Source of the DNA: a virus
Lineage: Duplodnaviria; Caudoviricetes
Reading direction: 5' to 3' (one strand)
Length of the DNA stretch: 24,703 nt
IMG/VR virus record: IMGVR_UViG_3300005325_000115
Coordinates: 1-24,703 of that record
Shown: piece after piece, positions 1 through 24,423 of the stretch
Numbering within the stretch: the first letter of the stretch is position 1
Layout: each line of letters starts with the position of its first letter
Made by a program: the position numbers and the translations under genes
Notes under the pieces: generated by a model
Told to the model about the DNA's origin: nothing
The model's database searches: none
The model's input: the letters and a program-made list of their open reading frames with translations, nothing else

Positions 1-1
1 T

Positions 2-577
2 TTAATCTCCGCAATCGCATTCGCTGCAGCACTGCTCTTGGCAGGTGCAGGTACAGGTGCAGGTACACGTGCAAGTGCAGGTACAAGTGCACTCACATTC
101 ACAGCAAACTATGTGCGTATGCCCTGCTAAGCTCTCCAAATGGCTTCTTAATTGTTCGTGAGCCGATGCCTTGATCCATGTAACAAGCGCTACAACCGGA
201 TCATCCTCAAAGGCAAAGCCTGGCGCATACGCATTGGAATTAATGCTATATGCCGGAACATAATGATAATGGCCGTTAAAAGCCTTAATAAAATTTATAA
301 CCTCATTAGTATGCGATGCCTTCGGCGGTGTTTCGTCAACAATAAGCTGCGCGTTTGATTCTGCCCATGCCACAGCTACATCCGGCAATTCTGCGTTTGA
401 ATTATTGCCGTTGAATACATGGTAATGACCGTCCAAAGCCTCTAAACAAGCCCGCAGCTCTACAATGTGAGTCTTTTTAATAGGCGTAACGTCCTGAATC
501 AGAGGGTCGTCCGTCCATGCCGCAGGTATTGGATTCCCGCCTGAACTTTTTGGGGGCCCGCTTGTGTAATTTCCCAT
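2..577 (-). CDS. Tail-fibre-like protein with three HxH-ending repeats and a Cys-rich C-terminus
   Basis: 191 aa with an AAGGGA RBS. Three ~51-aa-period repeats end in GHYH/GHYH/GHTH. The last 34 aa contain 16 Cys. It lies downstream of the tail tip genes. Confidence 0.7.
   Translation of the reverse strand: MGNYTSGPPKSSGGNPIPAAWTDDPLIQDVTPIKKTHIVELRACLEALDGHYHVFNGNNSNAELPDVAVAWAESNAQLIVDETPPKASHTNEVINFIKAFNGHYHYVPAYSINSNAYAPGFAFEDDPVVALVTWIKASAHEQLRSHLESLAGHTHIVCCECECTCTCTCTCTCTCTCTCQEQCCSECDCGD
41..88 (-). repeat. Eight degenerate hexamer units encoding (Thr-Cys)8
   Basis: Plus strand reads gcaggt gcaggt acaggt gcaggt acacgt gcaagt gcaggt acaagt. All variation falls at synonymous third positions. 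Confidence 0.95.
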
Positions 578-586
578 GTTTTCCCT

Positions 587-1159
587 TTATGCGTATACCG
601 CTCTAGGCGGCGCGTTTTCAAATCTCGAATTAGCGCTAATATACCTTAGGCCCTGACCGTCCTGAATCGAATCAAGGTGAACAGGAATGGTCTCATAGAA
701 CCCTTTAGCGCCAGCTGCGTTCGTTCCGTAACATTTATTATTCCCTGGTAACGCTGCCCCGCCTTCCAGCTTTTCAGTGCCGACTCCGCCATCTTTTAGC
801 TGCAGCTTATCGCCTGCTGAAATCTGAAATACCAGAGTATCGATCAGCCCGTCTAAATACTCCGGCGTTGTGTCGCTTACATCGGCTTTCAGCTTATTAG
901 GAGAATTGGCATCCGGCAGAACCCCGGCTGCAGTGGGAATGCTTGCCAGGCCGGTTAAAGCTGCGCCGATCACCTTATTCGGCGTAACTATCTGCGCAAG
1001 CTTTATGTCTTCAATACCTGCGCCGGGCGCTACCTTGGCATTCGTAATTAAAAGATTCGGGTCTGTGCCTAACTCTAAGGCTTCCCAGTTTGCCCTGCAG
1101 GCAGCCGGGAAGTTAATTAAAAGCATGTCATTTTCCGGCTTCGTTTTGTCCCAAGCCAT
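587..1159 (-). CDS. Putative tail fibre-associated structural protein
   Basis: 190 aa with a GGAGGT RBS. ITNAKV/VGTEKL-type repeats and DTTPEYL and GQGLRY...FEN segments resemble phage fibre proteins. Position after J agrees. Confidence 0.6.
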   Translation of the reverse strand: MAWDKTKPENDMLLINFPAACRANWEALELGTDPNLLITNAKVAPGAGIEDIKLAQIVTPNKVIGAALTGLASIPTAAGVLPDANSPNKLKADVSDTTPEYLDGLIDTLVFQISAGDKLQLKDGGVGTEKLEGGAALPGNNKCYGTNAAGAKGFYETIPVHLDSIQDGQGLRYISANSRFENAPPRAVYA

Positions 1160-1406
1160 CTGATACCTCCCTATTCTTGTATTGTTCTGCTACTTTATTC
1201 ATGTCGTAGAGATCTGCGCCATGTTCCCGCAAAGTCTCGATCCAGCAGACATCATGCATGAATAAAGCCTGCGCGTAATTAAACGCCTGCTCAATGCAGG
1301 TAAAGACTAAAGGCCGCTTCTTAGGAGTACGCAAAATAATGCTTCCTCTTATCAACACATAAGCCATGTCTTTGGGGATCTCCTGCTTGCATCTTGAACA
1401 AATCAT
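1128..1406 (-). CDS. Small hypothetical protein with CxxC ... HxxC putative metal-binding motif
   Basis: 92 aa. CSRC at the N-terminus and HDVC later. ATGA overlap with the upstream ORF. Confidence 0.65.
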   Translation of the reverse strand: MICSRCKQEIPKDMAYVLIRGSIILRTPKKRPLVFTCIEQAFNYAQALFMHDVCWIETLREHGADLYDMNKVAEQYKNREVSDGLGQNEAGK

Positions 1407-1618
1407 TCTTGAATTCCTTCCGCATCCTGCGCATGCTTAATAAACTTCTGAAGCAGCCCGTTAAGCAGCGGCTTGCTAAAATCAGCGTTCTTAATACCGA
1501 TTGTTTTTACCCGGCTTATTTCGCCGCTGTCATTGACTTTATAAAGAATGACGCCGCTTACAAAAACACCGTTATCAAACTCAATAATCACTTTATTCGG
1601 TATCAGTTTCTTTCCCAT
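1403..1618 (-). CDS. Small hypothetical phage protein
   Basis: 71 aa, packed 2 nt after the J stop and overlapping the next start. Confidence 0.65.
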   Translation of the reverse strand: MGKKLIPNKVIIEFDNGVFVSGVILYKVNDSGEISRVKTIGIKNADFSKPLLNGLLQKFIKHAQDAEGIQE

Positions 1619-1620
1619 TC

Positions 1621-4600
1621 TTAAACTCCATGGCTATGCCAGTCAAAAGTGCCGGTTTGGACAACACCTTGAGCATTGAATAATTTGACCTTGAAACTCG
1701 TCGTAGACTTATTAACAAACTGCGTATAAACGCCTCCCCCAGAAGTTATTTCAATATGCACATTCGGCTCCTCGTGATAAGTCTTGGTAAAAAATACCTC
1801 TTTGCCCTCATTTGCATCAGATACCGCGTCGCTCCCAAAATCATCTACGTCAGGAAGATCCCCGAGATATTGCAAAGTTGAACAGGTCACATAATCACCC
1901 AAGTTCTCCCGCGTCAAAATCATCTTAAGCTGAAAGTACCTGCAAAAATAATCGCCCGGCTGATAATCCAGCCATTCTGACCAGCTGATGTTATCCTCAG
2001 ATAAACGTATCTTGAAACTGGCCACATTTTGCGTCTCTTGTCCAGTGAACCGGTAAGAAAGACTGTCATTAAACCTCGCATCCGGATCACTGTTAAACCT
2101 TCTGCCTGTTGATAAGGAAACAATCGCCTCTATCTCAATAAAAACCGCTGCCACGTAGCCGATATCCCGCACAGGCGTATCGTATTCTCCGGATTGAAAT
2201 CCATCGGATATAACCAGCGTCTCAAAACTGACTTCAAGGTTTGTCTTTACGCCTTCCCATAAGGGATGCTCCTGATATTCAGCAACGACATTTCTAAACG
2301 GAATCTCCCCCACAGTAAGGACCGATTCCGTGGGGTTTTCGGAATAGTTACCTGAAGTATCAATGGCCTTGATCCAGAATTTCTGATCAATGCCTTTCTT
2401 AAGGCCCGTGGTTAGATAGTGTGTTCCCTGCTGAAATGTTATTACCTCGCCGCTTTCCCAGTCTACCCCGCGCCTGATTTCGTATCCCCAGACATCTACA
2501 TCAGGAATCTCGCTCCAGCCGAAATAGAGCTGATCCCTGTTCTGGTTAACCAAGAAAGTTGAAACATCGCTTGGCGGCGCAGATTTACCCACAACCGTGA
2601 TTGAGGATTCGGGCGCAGTGGCTAAAGAACTTTCCTCATCCATATCCGTAAGCGAGGTAACTTTGACTTTATAGGTGTGCCGGTCAACGATATCGCCGAT
2701 AATGCGGAAATACGATCCAGTAGTCTCCCCCCTGGCGCCCCAGCTTAAGCCGCCGTCATCGCTTAAGTAAATCTTCGCCTTGGCAAAGGATTTGACATAA
2801 TGGTCGACATACACCGGCCGGTCAAACCAAACATCAATCGCATTTTCAATTGTGCCGTCGGTTTTCTTAACCAAAGATTCGGTTAAAGTAAGATTTGCCA
2901 CAGGCGGAATTTCTCCTGACAAAGAGGAGTAATTATTCTGCGGCAGGATAATATCAGAGTCATCATAAACCGCCTCGTCATATTCCAGGGCCTGAATCTG
3001 CACTTCATTCTTGCCTTCTCTTTGGATCGCTACGACCCTAAAGTCTTTTTTAACCTTATTCGTCTCACCTATGGCGTAGACATTAAAATCCTGCGGCGTA
3101 TTTGTGAATGCCTGGCAGGTGATTTCTGTATAGGTCCCGGCGGGTGATATGATTAACCTTTCTTCAATTGCATCGTCGGAAAATCTGATTTGGATCTTGT
3201 AGGATTTGCCGTCCTCGATGGTCATCGGCCGGTCCAGCTTAATTAATACCGTTGTGGATCCGTCCTTAATTCTGCCCGAGAATCCCCATTGCGGCACATC
3301 ATGGGAAATAGAAATAATATCTCCGGCCTGGCAGGCAACTGCATCAATGCCTGCCTTAAAAACAATTGAGCGGTTAATATACTTTGCAACCTTTAAGGCA
3401 TAGCGCGCTGCGCGGATAGCATAGCTTGCCCCAGTGGTAAATAACCGGAGCTGGCTCTTGCGCATCGGCTCGCCGTTAGCCAACGCTTCTTCATCAATAT
3501 AAGCGATGGTTTCCTGGCGATAGTTCTTCTCTTTATCCGTAAACTGCACCTCGATCACATTCGGCACTTCTTTAATCGTCTTCCAGCTCTGAACAAAGCT
3601 GTCTTTGACGATATTGCCCATGCCGAAAAGCTGAGTCGGCATGGTTTGTTTATCTATCTTAAAAGTGATTCCGCCTGCGCTGTATAAAGGCATAGCATTA
3701 AATACAGCGCTTAACTGAATCAGTATATCCAGGGCTTTGTTGTTTGAGTCAATCACGACATCGAGCCTAAATCGTTTCTCAAATCCGCCTTTTCCGTCAG
3801 CAACCTTCTCTTCGCAATACTGCGACATCTCTAAGAGCGATGCATTATCCAGATGCGAAGTTAAGATAAACTCTCCCAGCCCGTAGCGGTTATTGACGAT
3901 AAAATCTCTGAGGCACCATACCGGATTGGCTGAGTATTTCTGAACATAGGTTATGCCGTCCCATTCAAGCAAAGTATCATCAGATAAGAGCCGGTAATTG
4001 CTTCCATCCCAGCAATAGTCTTCCCAGCTAACCGGCGCGCCTAAATTCCTGATGTCCGGCAGCAAAACCTTTTTGCCTTTTATAACCGCGGTAACATTCG
4101 GGGTTCCGCCGTTAAGCTGGTCTGTCGCCAAAAGCTGCAGGCCCAAAAGCGCAGTATTTGGATAGCTTAAGTCATCGGTCTTAAGCTCATCTATTTGAAA
4201 TAGCGTTAAATCTCCCTGGCGAAGCGGCGAAAGCGAGCTGTCATCCGAGGTGCGGGTTATCCTGATATCGTATTGCCCGGGAGTTAGTCCGACTTTACGA
4301 AACACCCGGCGTACTGTTGAGCGGGATTTTTCTGAAATGGTTGTCTCGCCTAAATCAATATAAGTACTTTCTGAGTGTAGTTTATACTCAACCCTGTAAG
4401 TAACGCTCCAGCTTTGGATATCGCCTGAACCTGAACTCTGCTGGTAAAGGCCGTTATTCAGCCTTAAGTGGATCTCAAAGCCTTCCACATCCAAATCCAC
4501 AGTGGTGTAAACATAAGGATTGTTTTTAACCAGGTTGGCGTTAACCGGATAAAGATTGTGCAGGTCCTCAAAGTTGCTGACAAGGCTCTGATAGTTTGCG

Positions 4601-5241
4601 CCAAAGCGTTTTGAAACCGTCACTCCGCCGAAGTTAGCAATAGGATTGTTATTAATCTCGATGCTCTCGATTGACTCGATCTCGCCTTCGCAAAGCGCAA
4701 GTAAAACATTTAAATAATGATTGTCTCCATCTTCCCAAAGGAATTGATTAATGATATTGCCGCCGATTCTGTGCTCGCCGTAAACAACCGCCACCGGCAC
4801 TCCCACCTCTTGGATAGTTTGAACTCCATCCCAGCCGTAAGTAGGCGATCCTTCATCTATGCCGGTTGCCGAGCCTAAATTGAAATCCGGCATCTTGGGC
4901 TGGTTCATATGCTGATAAATGGCATAACCCATGGAGAGCACAAAAAAGGTAAATAGGAACGGATGCGCTACAGCCACGGCCCATACTGCCGATACTATGG
5001 CAGAGATGATCGCAACCACCGGCGCTTTGACTTCCGGGATAATAGTAACCTCGTCCTCATTATCAAGATATGCTGATAAATTCTCGATGCGCTTGCCGCT
5101 GACAATAATGCGCTTATTCTCGTAATCAAATCCGGACTCAATTAAAACTTCCTGAAGCGTCTTATGGCGGGAATAAGGCACTTCCTTAACCTGAGCCTCT
5201 TCCAGTTTAAACGGATTATCTATGTTCCTTATAGTCAGCAT
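1621..5241 (-). CDS. Tail tip / host-specificity protein J with fused N-terminal gpI-like domain
   Basis: Likely start is ATG 5241 (MLTIRN, about 1206 aa). Ubiquitin-like N-terminus, hydrophobic stretch and GVPVAVVYGEHRIGG (gpI-like). Then YPNTALLGL, SANPVWCLRD..RYGLG and GDIISISHD (J-like), and FN3-like PPVANL/PPSDVS repeats. Confidence 0.88.
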   Translation of the reverse strand: MLTIRNIDNPFKLEEAQVKEVPYSRHKTLQEVLIESGFDYENKRIIVSGKRIENLSAYLDNEDEVTIIPEVKAPVVAIISAIVSAVWAVAVAHPFLFTFFVLSMGYAIYQHMNQPKMPDFNLGSATGIDEGSPTYGWDGVQTIQEVGVPVAVVYGEHRIGGNIINQFLWEDGDNHYLNVLLALCEGEIESIESIEINNNPIANFGGVTVSKRFGANYQSLVSNFEDLHNLYPVNANLVKNNPYVYTTVDLDVEGFEIHLRLNNGLYQQSSGSGDIQSWSVTYRVEYKLHSESTYIDLGETTISEKSRSTVRRVFRKVGLTPGQYDIRITRTSDDSSLSPLRQGDLTLFQIDELKTDDLSYPNTALLGLQLLATDQLNGGTPNVTAVIKGKKVLLPDIRNLGAPVSWEDYCWDGSNYRLLSDDTLLEWDGITYVQKYSANPVWCLRDFIVNNRYGLGEFILTSHLDNASLLEMSQYCEEKVADGKGGFEKRFRLDVVIDSNNKALDILIQLSAVFNAMPLYSAGGITFKIDKQTMPTQLFGMGNIVKDSFVQSWKTIKEVPNVIEVQFTDKEKNYRQETIAYIDEEALANGEPMRKSQLRLFTTGASYAIRAARYALKVAKYINRSIVFKAGIDAVACQAGDIISISHDVPQWGFSGRIKDGSTTVLIKLDRPMTIEDGKSYKIQIRFSDDAIEERLIISPAGTYTEITCQAFTNTPQDFNVYAIGETNKVKKDFRVVAIQREGKNEVQIQALEYDEAVYDDSDIILPQNNYSSLSGEIPPVANLTLTESLVKKTDGTIENAIDVWFDRPVYVDHYVKSFAKAKIYLSDDGGLSWGARGETTGSYFRIIGDIVDRHTYKVKVTSLTDMDEESSLATAPESSITVVGKSAPPSDVSTFLVNQNRDQLYFGWSEIPDVDVWGYEIRRGVDWESGEVITFQQGTHYLTTGLKKGIDQKFWIKAIDTSGNYSENPTESVLTVGEIPFRNVVAEYQEHPLWEGVKTNLEVSFETLVISDGFQSGEYDTPVRDIGYVAAVFIEIEAIVSLSTGRRFNSDPDARFNDSLSYRFTGQETQNVASFKIRLSEDNISWSEWLDYQPGDYFCRYFQLKMILTRENLGDYVTCSTLQYLGDLPDVDDFGSDAVSDANEGKEVFFTKTYHEEPNVHIEITSGGGVYTQFVNKSTTSFKVKLFNAQGVVQTGTFDWHSHGV

Positions 5242-5735
5242 ATTTTGTCTTTTAACCTGTAAAATCCCTCTATCCTTACCTGCCAAGAGAGATCATTTAT
5301 CCTTGAGATAATCACGCCCGGCCTTGCGCAATGGATAAATCTTCCCTTGCTCAAGATTATTCCTGCGTGATTGGCAATTCTTCTTGAATTAACAAACAAT
5401 ACTCCGTCAAGCATCTCGGGCGTCTTAACGCTCACCCAGTCATGGAAGTAATGCTCTTTAAAATAATCCTTCCCTTGCGTTCCCCAGATCTTGCTGTATT
5501 CAAGATCCTCAATATCAAACAGTCTCACGCCTAAGTCAGCGTAAACAAACTTCAAGAAACCCCAGCAGTCAAGCCCTTCTAAGGACCGGCCCCTATGCTG
5601 ATACGGCAGCCCAAGATACTTGTCAATGATGTATTGCTCTACATCACGTAGATGCGCCTTGCCGGTACCGACGGGAAAGCCCCGAATCTCTGATAATTGT
5701 TCAGCTGCTTGCATCTCTGTTTTGTCTTGTTGCAT
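5235..5735 (-). CDS. NlpC/P60 tail assembly protein (gpK-like, no JAB domain); start uncertain
   Basis: YLGLPY..GR...GLDCWG catalytic Cys, NHAGI His and FIHC. Lies between L and I-J. Confidence 0.85.
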   Translation of the reverse strand: MQQDKTEMQAAEQLSEIRGFPVGTGKAHLRDVEQYIIDKYLGLPYQHRGRSLEGLDCWGFLKFVYADLGVRLFDIEDLEYSKIWGTQGKDYFKEHYFHDWVSVKTPEMLDGVLFVNSRRIANHAGIILSKGRFIHCARPGVIISRINDLSWQVRIEGFYRLKDKIC

Positions 5736-6250
5736 GTAAGCTCAGCTCCTGCATATCCGCACTCTATCGATTTAAACTTCCAGCTGCAGTAATTCCGGGA
5801 GTAGCGTCTTGCCGGTAAATCCACTCCCAGGACATCGAACTTTCCTGTCAGGGTAAACTCCACGTTATTCTGGTCTGCTGTATAACTATCGATGTAAAAT
5901 ATGTCGTCCATAAAGGCATCCGGATCAGATAACTGATCCAGCCAGACCATGCGGATAGTTACTTTCTTGCCTCTAAAATCAAACTGCTCCAAGTAGAGCT
6001 GAATCAGCCTTGAGACATTGGCAAGCCGCACCTTAACTTGATCAATCTGCCCTTGGTTATTCTCGCCGACAAACTCATGGGTTATAGGAAACCGCGAATA
6101 AGTAACGCCGTTATAAATTACATCCTCGTCAAAACTCGCAAAACAGAGGTCATTTATCCCGTCATATTTTTCAAGTGTATACAAAAATATCGGCGTATTC
6201 TCGCGTTTTGCTTTCTCTTGTTTAAATGCGCTGTCTGTTTCCCGCGGCAT
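5639..6250 (-). CDS. Minor tail protein L-like (tail tip hub)
   Basis: C-terminal four-Cys pattern CSW...ECGY...TCNKT..RC..RFGAFP as in lambda gpL (Fe-S ligands). Synteny M-L-K. Confidence 0.85.
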   Translation of the reverse strand: MPRETDSAFKQEKAKRENTPIFLYTLEKYDGINDLCFASFDEDVIYNGVTYSRFPITHEFVGENNQGQIDQVKVRLANVSRLIQLYLEQFDFRGKKVTIRMVWLDQLSDPDAFMDDIFYIDSYTADQNNVEFTLTGKFDVLGVDLPARRYSRNYCSWKFKSIECGYAGAELTCNKTKQRCKQLNNYQRFGAFPSVPARRIYVM

Positions 6251-6588
6251 TATTTCACCTCAATAAATTCAAATTCAAAATCATACACGCCGTATGCCTT
6301 GCGGCTAAACTGAAAACTATCCTCAACAAAACGCACGGTATATTCAATTGAATCGTTGGGGTTTGTCCAGGTAAACGCCATAAACGCGCCAAACTTACCC
6401 TTAAAAAAGTCTGAAACCTCCGTCATTTCCATATGCGTCCTATTATTAAATCTAAGCGTCCATTTACGCTGAGGATTTGCCCATTTGCGCCGCCTCTGTT
6501 CTGCCCCGTTTTCAAACTCCGAGACAATCGTCTTATACTCAAGCGCCTCATCAATGAGAAAATCCGGCAAATAGCTAAAGTCGCTCAT
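6250..6588 (-). CDS. Minor tail protein M-like (distal tail protein)
   Basis: 112 aa directly after the tape measure. FENGAEQR, GKFGAFMAFTWTNP and VRF motifs. Confidence 0.8.
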   Translation of the reverse strand: MSDFSYLPDFLIDEALEYKTIVSEFENGAEQRRRKWANPQRKWTLRFNNRTHMEMTEVSDFFKGKFGAFMAFTWTNPNDSIEYTVRFVEDSFQFSRKAYGVYDFEFEFIEVK

Positions 6589-8129
6589 GTATAACTCCTG
6601 ATCACTGAACGAATCTTGCCGTTGTTATAAATATCGTCTGCAATCGCATTGGAAAGCATCTTGCGGTTACGCCAAACATCCTGAGCGTCCCATGCCTGTA
6701 TGACCTGATTCACATTTATGGTTATGCCCCCCTTTGCAGGTTTTCCTTCGTTGAGAGATTTCAAATTTTCTGATCCACCTAATGCGCGCATACCGCGCCT
6801 GGATAAAACCCCTTCTCCGGTCTGCGCAACTATCGGCACCTCTTCGGGCGCAAGGCCGGAATGCGCTCTTATAGGTAAAATCTGTCCGCCAGAGTGATAT
6901 ATCATGCCGCCTTGATGGAAAAATGGGATCATGCCCGGGAAAATCGAACCAATGGTCTTAACCAGGATCATCTTGGCCAAAACCTCAGCCAGGACTTCCA
7001 GCATCATATTGCCAAACTCTGCAAAATAATCTTTGATATCATCCATTTGGCCTTTAAAAACATCACTGAAAAAGTGCTTAAATACGCTCCCCAGAGATCG
7101 AGCTACGCCTTCCCCCATAGACTGAATTGCATCAAACTTCTGCGCCACCTCTTCAATCTTAATATCCTTGCCTAAGTTTTTAAGCGCATCGATGAATCCT
7201 GTTATCGCATTCTTTGCTTTATCATATCCTTTGACTAAGCTGCCTTCGCCAGTCACTAGGACATTTGATATCTTATTGCCGACTCTATCCATCTCCATAT
7301 CAGACGCTTTAATAAGGCCCTGAAGATTGTCCCGAAACGTCTTGATATGCTGTGACGCTTCGCGGTACGGCTCGCCGAGCTTCCCGGGGAGTTTACCCAG
7401 GACCTCATAAAACTTCTCTAAGCCAAGGGCAATCTTGTCAAAACCCACCAAAAGGTATTTGATGAGCTTCACAAAGCCGATGTAGACCATCTGGGCACCG
7501 ATCTCAACTGCGTTAAGGACCGGCACAGCCACATCTCTGAATTTAAGGAAAACGACGATAAGAATAGACACGGCGATAGCGATCCCGGCAATCCAGGGAT
7601 GCGCCAAGGCAAATAGGGCAAGCTTACCGACTAAATCAATAATAAGTCCGCCCAATCGTACCAATCGTCCTATCAAAGCGACTACTACACCGCTCAGCGT
7701 CATAAAAATACCGGTCACTGCTATAGTCTGCACAATCATCTGTTGCGTTGCCGGTGTTAGGCTATTCCAAAGATTAAGCAGATTGCCAAAGACGTTGGCC
7801 AATTTATGCGCCACCGGCACCAAAGCTTCAGCAATACTCACACGAAGCCCGATAAAGGCACTGTCAAGGCGCTTAAGCTCATTTGAGACGGAAAGCGAAT
7901 ATTTCTCTGCGGACTTAAAGGCAAGGGCAAGAGGCCCGGTCAATGCGCCTCCCATAAAAACAAGGTTCTGGCCGACCTGCGCTATCTCCCTGCCTACGTT
8001 ACGAAGCGTACCGCCAAGCTGTTTGCAGGAATTAGCAAACTTTTGCAAATTGCCTTCGATCCCCTGCAGGCGCTTTGAGACCTCGTCCTTTAACTTCATG
8101 ATGATTTCGAGTTCCCTATTTGTAGGCAT
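6585..8129 (-). CDS. Tail tape measure protein
   Basis: 514 aa, helical and Ala/Gly/Leu-rich with hydrophobic segments. C-terminal FHQGG...EEVPIVAQTGEGVLS motif. Follows the chaperone genes. Confidence 0.85.
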   Translation of the reverse strand: MPTNRELEIIMKLKDEVSKRLQGIEGNLQKFANSCKQLGGTLRNVGREIAQVGQNLVFMGGALTGPLALAFKSAEKYSLSVSNELKRLDSAFIGLRVSIAEALVPVAHKLANVFGNLLNLWNSLTPATQQMIVQTIAVTGIFMTLSGVVVALIGRLVRLGGLIIDLVGKLALFALAHPWIAGIAIAVSILIVVFLKFRDVAVPVLNAVEIGAQMVYIGFVKLIKYLLVGFDKIALGLEKFYEVLGKLPGKLGEPYREASQHIKTFRDNLQGLIKASDMEMDRVGNKISNVLVTGEGSLVKGYDKAKNAITGFIDALKNLGKDIKIEEVAQKFDAIQSMGEGVARSLGSVFKHFFSDVFKGQMDDIKDYFAEFGNMMLEVLAEVLAKMILVKTIGSIFPGMIPFFHQGGMIYHSGGQILPIRAHSGLAPEEVPIVAQTGEGVLSRRGMRALGGSENLKSLNEGKPAKGGITINVNQVIQAWDAQDVWRNRKMLSNAIADDIYNNGKIRSVIRSYT

Positions 8130-8440
8130 TAATCCTCTTTCTCTCTTGCCAAGGCAATCTCGCGCTCAATTATCTTTATTGCCTGGATAAATTTAAGCGG
8201 CTGTTCTAACCAGCCGCCGGGATTAGGCAAATATCCTTTCTCGAAAAAAAGATACGCGTTCAAATATTCAATGCTCGCTCTAGTAACAAGTTTCCTTGGA
8301 CATCGCCTAAACTCCCAGTCCTTTAATTTCCAGACGCCTTCAATCGGCGAATCTTCCTCGCAGCCGCGCTCTGCCTTTAAAACGTCCGGGCACTCCTGGC
8401 AGTCGAGCCTAAACCTATGCAGCCCGACCGCCAGGATTAG
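8129..8440 (-). CDS. Tail assembly chaperone T segment (-1 frame of a G-T fusion); missing from the ORF track
   Basis: Open 103-codon frame LILAVGLHRFRLDCQECPD...GYLPNPGGWLEQPLKF...REKED* beginning at the slippery site. Its TAA overlaps the tape measure ATG (TAATG). Confidence 0.85.
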   Translation of the reverse strand, partial: LILAVGLHRFRLDCQECPDVLKAERGCEEDSPIEGVWKLKDWEFRRCPRKLVTRASIEYLNAYLFFEKGYLPNPGGWLEQPLKFIQAIKIIEREIALAREKED

Positions 8441-8862
8441 TTTTTTTCTTCGTCCTCGCTCAAAAAATTCTCGGCTAAAACCACTTCGGAAAGTTCATCT
8501 ATTAATGACTTTGGCAGCAACGATATAATCTCATCTGTAACAGCCGAATAATTTTTCCCATTGATTGCTGTTGAGACCGTATCGAATTTAAGCGGTTTCT
8601 TGTCCCGCGGATCCAGAAAGTTGTCGAAACCTTTCAGCCCGAACTTGACCACTAAAAGGTTTCGCTTTGAGGCATTAATATTCGCCTTAGCCGGATCCTT
8701 GGGGTTCTTAGAACTGAATTCAAAAGATGTAGTTTGATCCTCAATAAAGGCCCTTAAATGAGAATCGAGAAGCCCGACGTGAAAAATCGTGGGATTATCT
8801 TTATCAGGATCAAGCTTTGACTTGTAAGGCTTAGTTTCGTAAATATTGATTCCTGTAAGCAT
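8437..8862 (-). CDS. Tail assembly chaperone G
   Basis: 141 aa with a GAGGAGG RBS. Lies between tail tube and tape measure and ends LSEDEEKN at a slippery sequence. Confidence 0.82.
   Translation of the reverse strand: MLTGINIYETKPYKSKLDPDKDNPTIFHVGLLDSHLRAFIEDQTTSFEFSSKNPKDPAKANINASKRNLLVVKFGLKGFDNFLDPRDKKPLKFDTVSTAINGKNYSAVTDEIISLLPKSLIDELSEVVLAENFLSEDEEKN
8440..8447 (-). promoter_or_regulatory. -1 programmed ribosomal frameshift slippery site (A AAA AAC)
   Basis: Minus strand GAA AAA AAC TAA at the end of chaperone G. The -1 frame stays open to the tape measure start. Confidence 0.85.
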
Positions 8863-22255: not shown

Positions 22256-22600
22256 ATGACTGCAGAGCAGAAAAAGAAAAACAAAGAGTTTTTGAATAAA
22301 CTTCATGCCAAGCATTACGGCAAAAAGAAATCAAAAACTCAAAAGCCGAAAGCTCCGGCTGATAATTCTCCTTCGCCTAAGGAAGGCATTGTCTTGGCGG
22401 CAGGCAGCACGCGCAACGAGCTAATGCTGACGGCTAAACAGCGCGGAGTTAAGAATTTCCGGGTGCTTAATAAGCAGGAGCTCGCCGACGTACTCAAGAA
22501 CATCGGCGATCAAAAGGCTGTTGATGCTATTGTGGCCGGGGCCGTGACCAGATGGAAGGCCGGCTGGGGAAAAGGCAAAAAGCAGAAGACCCAGGCATAG
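22256..22600 (+). CDS. Basic protein with Rho N-terminal-like (helix-extended-helix) domain
   Basis: ATG 22256 with GGGGGTG RBS, 114 aa. TRNELMLTAKQRGVKNFRVLNKQELADVL matches the Rho_N pattern ELxxxAKxxGxxxxxxLxKxEL. Confidence 0.7.
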   Translation: MTAEQKKKNKEFLNKLHAKHYGKKKSKTQKPKAPADNSPSPKEGIVLAAGSTRNELMLTAKQRGVKNFRVLNKQELADVLKNIGDQKAVDAIVAGAVTRWKAGWGKGKKQKTQA

Positions 22601-22613
22601 CTGCTTTAGCGCT

Positions 22614-22642
22614 GCCAGGCGGAAGACGCTCTTCTGCCTGGC
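22614..22642 (+). other. Strong stem-loop between the Rho-N-like gene and the recombinase
   Basis: gccaggcggaaga-cgc-tcttctgcctggc, 13 bp with one G-U on the plus-strand RNA. No U-tract. Confidence 0.55.
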
Positions 22643-22680
22643 GGATGCCTGCACTCAAAAGTGGTAGAAATTCTATGATT

Positions 22681-24423
22681 ATGAATGCCAAAACAAATAA
22701 TACAAATAACAAAAAGCGCTACGTAATATATACCCGCTGCTCTACTGATGACCAGGCCCAGGGAGATTTTACAACCCTGGACTCGCAGGCCCATCACTGT
22801 AAAAACATGCTTGATGCCTTTGGATATGACCTTGCCAAAATAGGCAACAAAGGCCGAATAAATGATGACGGCTATTCCGGCAAGGATCTCAACAGGCCCG
22901 GTATCCAGATGATTATTGACCACGTACGTAAAGAAGCGCCGTTTGACGGAATAATCTTCTTCCGCCTTGACCGTTTGACCCGCAATACCCGGGACCTCTA
23001 CTGGCTTATTGACCTATTCAGAGAAAAGGAAATCGATTTTGTCTCGGTAAGAGAAAACTTAGACAGCTCAACCGCCATAGGCAGGGTAGTAATTGGCATA
23101 CTCGGGATTTTGTCAGCATTTGAACGGGAACTCACCGGCGAACGCGTGAAAGCATCTGCTATCGCGCGTGTGCGCCAAGGCAAATGGGTAGGCGGGATGC
23201 TGCCTTATGGATATAAGCTTATACCGGACGGAGAGCCTCTTCCTAACGGCCGCCAACCGCATAAAATTATCCTTGATGAAAAGATAACTACCCACCTTAA
23301 AGTTATCTGGGAGATGGCCGCGGATAACCGGTCGCTTACACAGGTAGGCCTTGAGCTTCATCGGCGCGGACTAAAAACTCTAAACGGCAAGGAATGGCGC
23401 AGGCAGGTCATCTCAAGGATCCTAAAAAATCCTTTCTACAAAGGCTATATCCAGTACAGCGGAGAATACCACAAAGGCAACCACCCTCCAATTGTTGATG
23501 AGAAACTCTGGGAGCGGGCCAATAAGATATTGAGCGCCAGGCTCCCCGGCCACAACTTCGTGCAGAAAGAGAGATTCTACGAATACCTCCTCGCAGGCAT
23601 TCTTAGATGCGGAGACTGTGGGAGCCACATGGTCTGCAATTTCTCTGGAGGCAGAGACAGAAGAAAATTCTTTTATTATGAATGCAGCCGCTCCAGGCAG
23701 GCGCTGGGATGCAAAGCCAGCCGCATCTCCGCCACCACTTTTGACAAGGCTATAATTGATTATTTTAAGCGGGCAGCTAAGGACCGAAGCATTATTATAA
23801 AGGCTCTTGGAGACGCAATGCTTGAATCCCAGGCAAAGCTTGAGAAGATAGACGCGGATCTCAAAGAAAAAGAATCAAAGCTAAACGGCTTCCGGCACCA
23901 GGCCAATAAACTGCTTGAATTGGCCATGGGCAACACAATCACCAAAGGCTCAACCTATAAAGACAAAATGAATGAATTGGAAACGGAGATTGCGAAGTTG
24001 GAAGACGAGATAGACAAGCTGCAGGCGCAAAAGAGAGTCGCCAGCATAAATGCCTGCTCCGGCGAGCTCGTATACCGCAGCATGAACTTTGCCATACAAC
24101 ATCTCGAAGACGCCCCTCCGGAAGCCCAGAAAAGCATTATACAGGCTCTGATCAAAGACATTTACGTGTATAGCGACAGGCTGGTAATCAATATGTATAT
24201 TGAAGAGCCGCTTGAGGGCATCCTCCCCGACGAAATAGCCGCTATAAACGAAAAGCGCCCTACAGAAGCCTGTAAGGCGCTTGTTGCCACTGCATCACTA
24301 CCCGGAGTTTCGGATAGTTGTCAACAATGGCTGCCCCGCATGGAATCGAACCATGATAGTCAGATCCAGAATCTGAAGTCCTACCGATTAGACGACAGGG
24401 CAAATAATTTACGAAGTGATTAA
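22681..24423 (+). CDS. Large serine recombinase (phage integrase)
   Basis: YTRCSTDDQ catalytic Ser, DDGYSGKDLNRPG, RLDRLTR, GGMLPYGY, ILKNPFYKG..HPPIV, Zn ribbon CGDC...YEC...C and a coiled coil. Start is ATG 22675 or 22681. Confidence 0.95.
   Translation: MNAKTNNTNNKKRYVIYTRCSTDDQAQGDFTTLDSQAHHCKNMLDAFGYDLAKIGNKGRINDDGYSGKDLNRPGIQMIIDHVRKEAPFDGIIFFRLDRLTRNTRDLYWLIDLFREKEIDFVSVRENLDSSTAIGRVVIGILGILSAFERELTGERVKASAIARVRQGKWVGGMLPYGYKLIPDGEPLPNGRQPHKIILDEKITTHLKVIWEMAADNRSLTQVGLELHRRGLKTLNGKEWRRQVISRILKNPFYKGYIQYSGEYHKGNHPPIVDEKLWERANKILSARLPGHNFVQKERFYEYLLAGILRCGDCGSHMVCNFSGGRDRRKFFYYECSRSRQALGCKASRISATTFDKAIIDYFKRAAKDRSIIIKALGDAMLESQAKLEKIDADLKEKESKLNGFRHQANKLLELAMGNTITKGSTYKDKMNELETEIAKLEDEIDKLQAQKRVASINACSGELVYRSMNFAIQHLEDAPPEAQKSIIQALIKDIYVYSDRLVINMYIEEPLEGILPDEIAAINEKRPTEACKALVATASLPGVSDSCQQWLPRMESNHDSQIQNLKSYRLDDRANNLRSD
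24248..24282 (-). terminator. Intrinsic terminator for the tRNA transcript, embedded in the integrase coding sequence
   Basis: Minus strand aagcgccttacag-gctt-ctgtagggcgctt-ttcgttt, 45 nt downstream of the CCA end. Confidence 0.7.
24328..24402 (-). tRNA. tRNA-Gln (anticodon CTG), integration target
   Basis: TGCCCTGTCGTCTAATCGGTAGGACTTCAGATTCTGGATCTGACTATCATGGTTCGATTCCATGCGGGGCAGCCA. Acceptor stem with U1-A72, TCAGA/TCTGA anticodon stem, GTTCGATTC T-loop and encoded CCA. Confidence 0.96.

Follow-up and report, generated by a model that had tools for sequence, protein, structure and literature searches.

A cysteine ladder in a phage tail operon and its radical SAM neighbours: a candidate enzyme-stapled fibre tip

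Why would a phage tail protein end in a run of cysteines, and which enzyme, if any, acts on it? The window, the whole 24,703-nucleotide stretch of viral DNA analysed here, is a lambda-like prophage arm. Its minus strand encodes terminase, portal and tail proteins, among them a gpJ-like tip protein, and a serine recombinase and a tRNA-Gln lie at its far end. The gene nearest base 1 ends in the cysteine run. A first-pass annotation of the window proposed that the run is maintained as protein, that it is fused to a phage fibre protein, and that a radical SAM maturase is encoded left of position 1. The features needed at the outset are as follows.

Positions 2..577, minus strand: 191-aa gene, a three-repeat helical domain followed by the Cys ladder; putative fibre cap.
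Positions 5..106, minus strand: Cys-X ladder, residues 158-191, with 16 Cys, 8 Thr, 6 Asp/Glu and 2 Gln; putative enzyme substrate.
Positions 1621..5286, minus strand: gpJ-like central tail-tip protein (Pfam FNIII-A_GpJ, Phage-tail_3) of the lambda-like tail operon.

Is the ladder a real protein sequence? Read on the minus strand it is CCECEC(TC)8QEQCCSECDCGD, which places 16 Cys in the last 34 codons of the 191-aa protein of ORF 2..577, as had been described. Its Cys codons are mixed (TGC eleven times, TGT five times), as are its Thr codons (five ACC, two ACT and one ACG). In the 25 other main minus-strand genes of the window, Cys makes up 0.9% of the residues and never exceeds 5 in any 34; against these genes, the binomial probability of the ladder's Cys density is about 4e-24.

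The repeat might still have arisen by slippage, as a microsatellite, or be a Pro-Ala repeat read out of frame. Many viral contigs with no radical SAM neighbour carry the DNA pattern, and a Pro-Ala-like stretch lies in a neighbouring frame of the ladder. The Cys-Thr DNA pattern alone matched 120 viral loci, mostly short stop-bounded frames, with no new ladder families among them; a radical SAM match was found at only one of the 120 (flanks were available for 80), and that one is a member of the ladder family. Because 119 of the 120 loci have no such match, the DNA pattern is uninformative by itself and a frame control is needed. This control used 14 distinct tail DNAs from 17 loci of equal tail length, with differences counted against the window. 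Third codon positions make up 30 of the 32 variable columns. The Cys frame has 163 synonymous differences and 1 non-synonymous difference, the two other same-strand frames have synonymous to non-synonymous ratios of 1:162 and 57:106, and the opposite strand reaches 151:12 at best. Selection on the ladder acts in the Cys frame, at the protein level, which upholds the view that the repeat is not the product of slippage. The 163:1 bias rules out a microsatellite or off-frame origin, whose probability we regard as negligible. The ladder is also in frame across 47 homologues with identities down to 31%, in which the X residues are 53% Thr, 21% Glu, 11% Gln and 6% Asp. Close relatives of the window ladder have 8 or 6 Cys-Thr units.

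Where is the modifying enzyme? No radical SAM gene is present among the 28 main ORFs of the window, and the first-pass annotation had likewise seen no modifying enzyme there. Another contig, L028, is 100.000% identical to window positions 1..8577 and continues past base 1, and a contig from run X7, which belongs to a study not marked as a potential origin of this DNA, spans the junction between ladder and enzyme with 0 differences. The maturase that had been predicted left of position 1 starts right after base 1, and further cassette genes follow it.

Position 1..1, minus strand: single base separating the stop codon of the ladder gene from the start codon (ATG) of the radical SAM/SPASM gene.
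L028 8578..9864: radical SAM/SPASM gene, 428 aa, outside the window and directly beyond base 1.
L028 9868..11220: probable B12-type radical SAM gene, 450 aa, after the SPASM gene.
L028 11528..12082: Lcl_C (DUF1566) protein, in the cassette downstream of the enzymes.

The SPASM enzyme carries the CxxxCxxC motif at C14/C18/C21 and matches Pfam Radical_SAM at 47.3 bits (cut-off 29.5). The motif and seven auxiliary Cys, the latter aligned with those of CteB, are kept in 13 of 13 SPASM representatives, which are mostly 31-49% identical between clades. The Pfam SPASM model is passed by the L022 orthologue and not by the L028 enzyme. The top NCBIfam match is PapB (NF047865; 207.9 bits, cut-off 340; 154-215 bits in seven orthologues), followed by other thioether maturases. 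Scores are 128 bits for SCIFF/CteB (TIGR03974, cut-off 425) and 135.4 bits for the CXXX enzyme (TIGR04115, cut-off 350). Against the CrpC family (TIGR04463, cut-off 525), the orthologues from L002 and L012 reach 66 bits. With scores under the family cut-offs, membership of PapB, SCIFF, CXXX or CrpC was rejected. CteB is also the nearest solved structure (E 5.7e-26), and the enzyme is best described as ranthipeptide-maturase-like on these profile and structure matches. Its C-terminal extension has no match in the Atlas. Among 50,697 GenBank phage records the enzyme has 21 matches, all below 30% identity.

Six active-site positions, defined in PMC10288494, read Y-F-L-S-H-R in 13 of 13 SPASM representatives. 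CteB, the only enzyme compared, has F-F-T-S-H-Q, so that two of the six are clearly unlike it (L for T and R for Q). The identity across all 13 suggests one common reaction, although it does not name that reaction. In L063 (1569-3893) and L064 (712-1174) the SPASM gene contains a LAGLIDADG intein right after the CxxxCxxC-like motif region, a site that would be typical of essential genes.

How constant is the association between ladder and enzymes? Sixty-two ladder loci were counted, with 8 re-fetches dropped and some contigs still present in two collections. Both enzymes are found at all 42 loci with at least 2.5 kb of downstream sequence and at least one enzyme at all 49 loci with at least 1 kb, whereas the 10 loci with neither have no more than 805 bases of downstream sequence left. 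Co-occurrence with radical SAM genes, which the first-pass annotation had suggested as a check, holds at these loci; the 42 two-enzyme loci represent 8 clusters at 70% identity, and many loci are near-copies. The trio of ladder gene and two enzyme genes is found in both siphovirus-like and baseplate-bearing, myovirus-like (large phage) settings.

Do tail and enzymes also vary together? Tail types, a CC-motif end (the window type) or a plain ladder, were set by rule before any tree was built. For 35 loci, the tail-type label changes once on the SPASM tree as against twice on the N-domain tree, and it changes once on the B12 tree (14 rows). The CC clade is one side of a branch with support of only 87 in the SPASM tree (16 rows) and 93 in the B12 tree (14 rows), and a single CC clade is rejected for the N-domain of 16 representatives (AU p 0.0035). 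In these trees, the enzymes group by tail type and not by the remainder of the ladder protein. L042, a grouping named after the trees had been seen, has the sequence of a clear recombinant: its N-domain is 85% identical to that of the window, its enzymes are 31% and 34% identical, and the DNA match stops inside the ladder. Since the ladder adjoins the enzyme genes, part of this co-travel can be plain linkage. L022 suggests that it is not all linkage: there the SPASM gene lies upstream of the ladder gene and the tail type is still paired with the enzyme type (45% versus 32-35%).

Does the protein that carries the ladder belong to the fibre? The upstream gene is the fibre, with these features.

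Positions 587..1159, minus strand: 190-aa tail-fibre base with a swappable C-terminus and an AVYA end; the first ~156 residues are common to relatives.
Positions 590..601, minus strand: AVYA motif at the fibre C-terminus, a putative docking site for the helical-repeat protein.

Contrary to what had been proposed, ladder and fibre are not one protein: the ladder ends a separate 157-residue helical domain. About 156 residues of the fibre are common to 70 relatives, while the ends vary and include PHROG tail-collar and tail-fibre domains. AVYA is invariant in 25 of 25 rows, which were chosen for the motif. A model of the fibre folded alone reached a pLDDT of 43 and was set aside.

Fibre tips were surveyed at 41 loci, which represent a few clades and not independent events: 40 of 50 fibre-base loci, after dropping 10 in which the contig cuts the fibre gene, together with L264. 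At 8 of them the fibre has the AVYA end and is followed by the ladder protein. At 27, AVYA plus one residue is followed by a 241-aa helix-repeat protein with 17 Cys, at 4 a CxxxC repeat is fused to the fibre itself, and at 2 another fibre end precedes a Cys-poor protein. A helical-repeat gene follows the fibre at 35 of 35 loci with AVYA and at none of the 6 without it. Where at least 1.9 kb of downstream sequence is available, radical SAM genes accompany the ladder (7 of 7), the 241-aa tip (22 of 22) and the fused CxxxC repeat (3 of 3), that is, Cys-rich tips on the same fibre base at 32 of 32 loci. In this control, which covers fibre-base relatives with flanking DNA only, the Cys-poor tip has radical SAM genes at neither of its 2 loci, which are identical in gene content. 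Where an unrelated fibre precedes a ladder gene, it too can terminate in AVYA or something similar. An AVYA-like fibre end is absent in L022, L062, L063, L065, L066, L068 and L069; an AVYA-like motif does close a neighbouring gene in L022 and L063. Gene order and symmetry suggest that the helical-repeat protein may dock on the AVYA ends of the fibre.

The second, commoner module on the same fibre base (L205:5501-10075; L264, G001:C1 near 1,857,900-1,862,900) consists of the 241-aa helical-repeat protein with its 17 Cys, a 135-aa gene and three radical SAM/SPASM genes, and the Velamenicoccus genome carries both this module and the ladder module. In L215, L217, L223 and L231 (5001-8600), the fibre with its C-terminal CxxxC repeat is followed by a 263-aa gene and two radical SAM genes.

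Might the enzymes act elsewhere, on the Lcl-fold protein, a host molecule or a small molecule, so that their association with the ladder reflects adjacency only? Crossover can readily take place within a Cys-Thr repeat, and this is where the breakpoint of L042 falls. The L023 and L060 cassettes have inserted reductase, aminotransferase-like or glycosyltransferase genes. The persistence of the pairing in L022, with its upstream SPASM gene, and the presence of radical SAM genes beside each of three different Cys-rich tips and not beside the Cys-poor one make a target elsewhere quite improbable.

The helical domain in front of the ladder has three conserved motifs.

Positions 419..427, minus strand: HxH motif 1 (H51/H53), invariant in 47 of 47 homologues.
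Positions 263..271, minus strand: HxH motif 2 (H103/H105), invariant in 47 of 47 homologues.
Positions 113..121, minus strand: HxH motif 3 (H153/H155), immediately before the ladder, invariant in 47 of 47 homologues.

In addition to these six His, two Arg, C159, E162, C165 and C167 are invariant in the 47 homologues. AlphaFold2 predicts a confident domain over residues 1-160 and a tail of low confidence (pLDDT ~50 over the ladder); in the model, about residues 1-157 of a single chain form three similar repeats, in each of which a helix leads into HxH. The protein has no Pfam, NCBIfam or PHROG match and no relatives among the 50,697 GenBank phage records. Compared with solved and viral folds, the model gives no clear match and no Foldseek hit at E 0.001, and the best VIA match is a designed helical filament (Z 6.9, rmsd 3.4, 123 aligned). 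These failed searches do not show a new fold. The helix repeat (W-x-D ... IK-x-x-H-x-x-ELR, window 107-577; P0056-P0187) has 1,617 matches. The best 150 of these 1,617 were examined, and most have three copies at protein ends; many of the proteins are surface, RHS-like or phage proteins, and about ten are small helix-repeat proteins with other Cys-rich tails. Among the proteins scanned, the repeat has no family name in the libraries used. In one ladder gene (L009:10001-10603) one Cys is missing and, for want of the usual stop, the frame continues for 13 codons, either as a variant or through sequence error.

What, then, is the ladder protein? It is likely, at about even confidence, that the ladder is the substrate of the two radical SAM enzymes and that the protein caps the fibre tip. 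The gene order, the conservation of the trio, the selection in the Cys frame and the intact radical SAM and seven-Cys auxiliary motifs make a fibre-tip cap stapled by enzyme-made thioethers the best reading, one that we rate as evenly balanced between right and wrong. The pseudo-threefold helical domain would dock on the three AVYA ends of a fibre trimer, and a single metal ion may be bound by its six His. In T4-type fibres, HxH motifs hold a metal ion. The SPASM enzyme would link the sulfurs of ladder Cys to carbons in the side chains of neighbouring Thr, Glu, Asp or Gln, the links being ranthionine-type thioethers of -2 Da each. Such thioethers could make a stapled rod of an otherwise flexible tail with no oxygen required. 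In the weakest step, the B12-type enzyme might add C-methyl groups to the ladder tail. This methylation, the metal at HxH and the location in the virion are weaker inferences than thioether formation. The purpose of a stapled tail is a guess: it might add stability, make contact with the host, or serve as a mount for the Lcl-fold protein encoded downstream.

Alternatively, the enzymes might modify the tail of a protein that serves as a fibre-assembly chaperone (Tfa/gp38-like), or the tail might be cleaved off as a free peptide. Genes for assembly chaperones lie directly behind the fibre gene. The ladder gene sits in just this place, and its conserved N-terminal part and Cys-rich C-terminal part resemble a leader and a core. 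Against this, a Cys repeat is fused to the fibre itself at 4 of the 41 sibling loci, the N-domain is predicted to be well folded, and the 6 small genes that follow the enzymes in L028 include, by Pfam, neither a protease nor a peptide exporter; we consider both versions unlikely. The T-even gp38 adhesin and the Tfa proteins of lambda and Mu are single-chain proteins encoded after the fibre that bind its trimeric end. The 191-aa protein is likewise a single chain encoded after the fibre, and it would bind the fibre end in a similar way, but it has no sequence or fold match to them. We know of no enzymatic maturation of gp38/Tfa proteins.

Would a stapled cap be chemically reasonable? According to PMC8326336, CteB links Cys to the gamma carbon of Thr and QhpD links Cys to Asp and Glu. 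For PapB the acceptors are Asp or Glu at i+1 to i+7, with acidic side chains the only ones used (PMC12373016). Thr, Asp and Glu at the X positions of the ladder are thus documented ranthionine acceptors in these two sources, which supports the thioether reading. The limit of PapB to acidic side chains counts against it, since the Thr core of the ladder needs other chemistry. The SPASM enzyme has no N-terminal RRE, its motif starting at residue 14 and its alignment to CteB at CteB residue 98; this leaves the mode of tail recognition unexplained and also counts against the stapled-cap reading. So do its scores under every family cut-off, the two active-site residues clearly unlike CteB and the low B12-binding score of the second enzyme.

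The enzymes might also act on the ladder to yield something other than a thioether staple, for example through another oxidation or as a metallothionein-like metal or Fe-S tail with few residues altered. CxC and CC motifs are typical metal ligands. Both are found in the ladder, its 16 Cys are more than tight alternation easily staples, and the SPASM enzyme lies outside all named thioether families and shares its fold with anaerobic sulfatase maturases. However, thioether maturases are the top matches (213 bits as against 66 for a sulfatase maturase, in a close relative scanned), and the X residues of the ladder are mostly Thr, Glu, Gln and Asp, not Gly, Lys and Ala. A product of this kind is distinctly unlikely.

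What could the second enzyme contribute? It matches radical SAM at 71.9 bits, and the B12-binding Pfam at 25.8 bits of a 32.1 cut-off (E 1e-5); in its orthologues the B12-binding match is under the cut-off in 4 of 7 and absent in 3 of 7. It is probably a B12-type radical SAM enzyme, judging from these profiles. Against TIGR04014 it scores 55 of 360 bits. The nearest solved structure is MgmA (PDB 9CCB; E 2e-9), a remote match. Past base 1, the order in L028 is SPASM gene, B12-type gene, 96-aa gene, Lcl_C protein, small genes and then host-type genes. The C-terminal part of the Lcl_C protein (L028:11528-12082) varies among close relatives, as in a diversity-generating retroelement target; the protein is a candidate receptor binder. 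Other cassettes have extra genes: an aldo-keto reductase, a DegT-like gene and two more radical SAM-like genes in L023 (8592-15483), and a glycosyltransferase 61 in L060 (6839-7438).

How does the ladder system relate to known ones? The best profile and structure matches of the SPASM enzyme are with the ranthipeptide systems PapA/PapB (freyrasin), CteA/CteB (SCIFF) and QhpC/QhpD, in which substrate Cys also have Thr, Glu or Asp close by. The ladder system differs in its 191-aa substrate, its Cys at every second residue, its B12-type partner and its phage tail operon, and in an enzyme that falls under all cut-offs and has no N-terminal RRE. The CXXX-repeat system, whose features are given here from NCBIfam names, likewise pairs a periodic Cys target with a radical SAM/SPASM enzyme free of an RRE (TIGR04115; targets TIGR04114/04117/04118; PF27846), and sibling phages carry a CxxxC repeat on the same fibre base. 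PF27846 is found on 19% of the members of a look-alike Atlas cluster, as a lead only. In contrast to the period of 4 in CXXX targets, the ladder has a period of 2, and its enzyme scores 135 of 350 bits. The 191-aa protein (P0001) has no match to TIGR04114/04117/04118 at E up to 1, no CXXX target or helper model matches the ladder neighbours scanned, and the fused CxxxC repeat of a sibling (P0222) scores 16.7 of 35 against TIGR04118. The ladder system thus appears to work like a ranthipeptide or CXXX-repeat system yet misses the family cut-offs tested.

A precedent on a protein substrate comes from Methanococcus voltae, where ranthionine cross-links were shown in 2026 on the 29-kDa protein CrpA (CrpA/CrpC; TIGR04463; PMC13692751), and this supports the ladder reading. 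There, a radical SAM/SPASM enzyme with seven auxiliary Cys is again encoded beside a protein with a C-terminal Cys-rich region, although CrpC has an RRE, CrpA has a 17-residue repeat, and the system is cellular and not from a phage. The main text and three supplement files of PMC13692751 contain no phage term. For the second enzyme, MgmA (the MCR glutamine C-methyltransferase; PDB 9CCB; PMC11796369) is a B12 radical SAM enzyme that methylates a residue within a protein chain, but the ladder enzyme is only a remote match. By title, literature searches found no phage case of a ladder/radical SAM module, with most subscription journals outside the search, and the ladder module is unmentioned in the part of the Omnitrophota preprint 10.64898/2026.06.07.730766 that was available.

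More generally, phages of anaerobes might carry interchangeable Cys-rich fibre tips, each with its own radical SAM enzymes, that are stapled and methylated into a poly-thioether rod; this is a tentative idea that we hold to be possible, with the greater chance against it. If it is true, RiPP chemistry would make a part of the virion, as an oxygen-free substitute for disulfides, and the ladder would represent a new period-2 (Cys-Thr)n substrate class served by an RRE-less enzyme. Enzyme-made thioether cross-links in proteins are known in few cases (QhpC, and CrpA in 2026), and none was found on a virus particle. Were this confirmed, Fe-S and B12 enzymes could be needed to make phage fibre tips, which would have a bearing on phage assembly in strict anaerobes and on why some may resist reconstitution. 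A maturase that lacks an RRE and can staple a dense Cys-Thr ladder on a folded domain would also be a useful catalyst for protein engineering.

In which hosts do these phages live? Close relatives of the window are found in Omnitrophota genomes, including that of Ca. Velamenicoccus archaeovorus, so that this phylum is the likely host. At the far end of the window, the serine recombinase ORF (22552-24423, plus strand) runs at its 3' end across the tRNA-Gln (24328-24402, minus strand), and this overlap is probably the integration site; no duplicate of a tRNA-Gln 12-mer was found in the fetched parts of L028, L025 and L024. In lambda, G and GT form a frameshift-extended tail chaperone. The window has a gap at 8132-8440 (minus strand), between a 141-aa tail chaperone-like gene and a tape-measure-like gene, where L010 has a 105-aa ORF, and by analogy it is possible that this gap encodes the frameshift extension of a chaperone.
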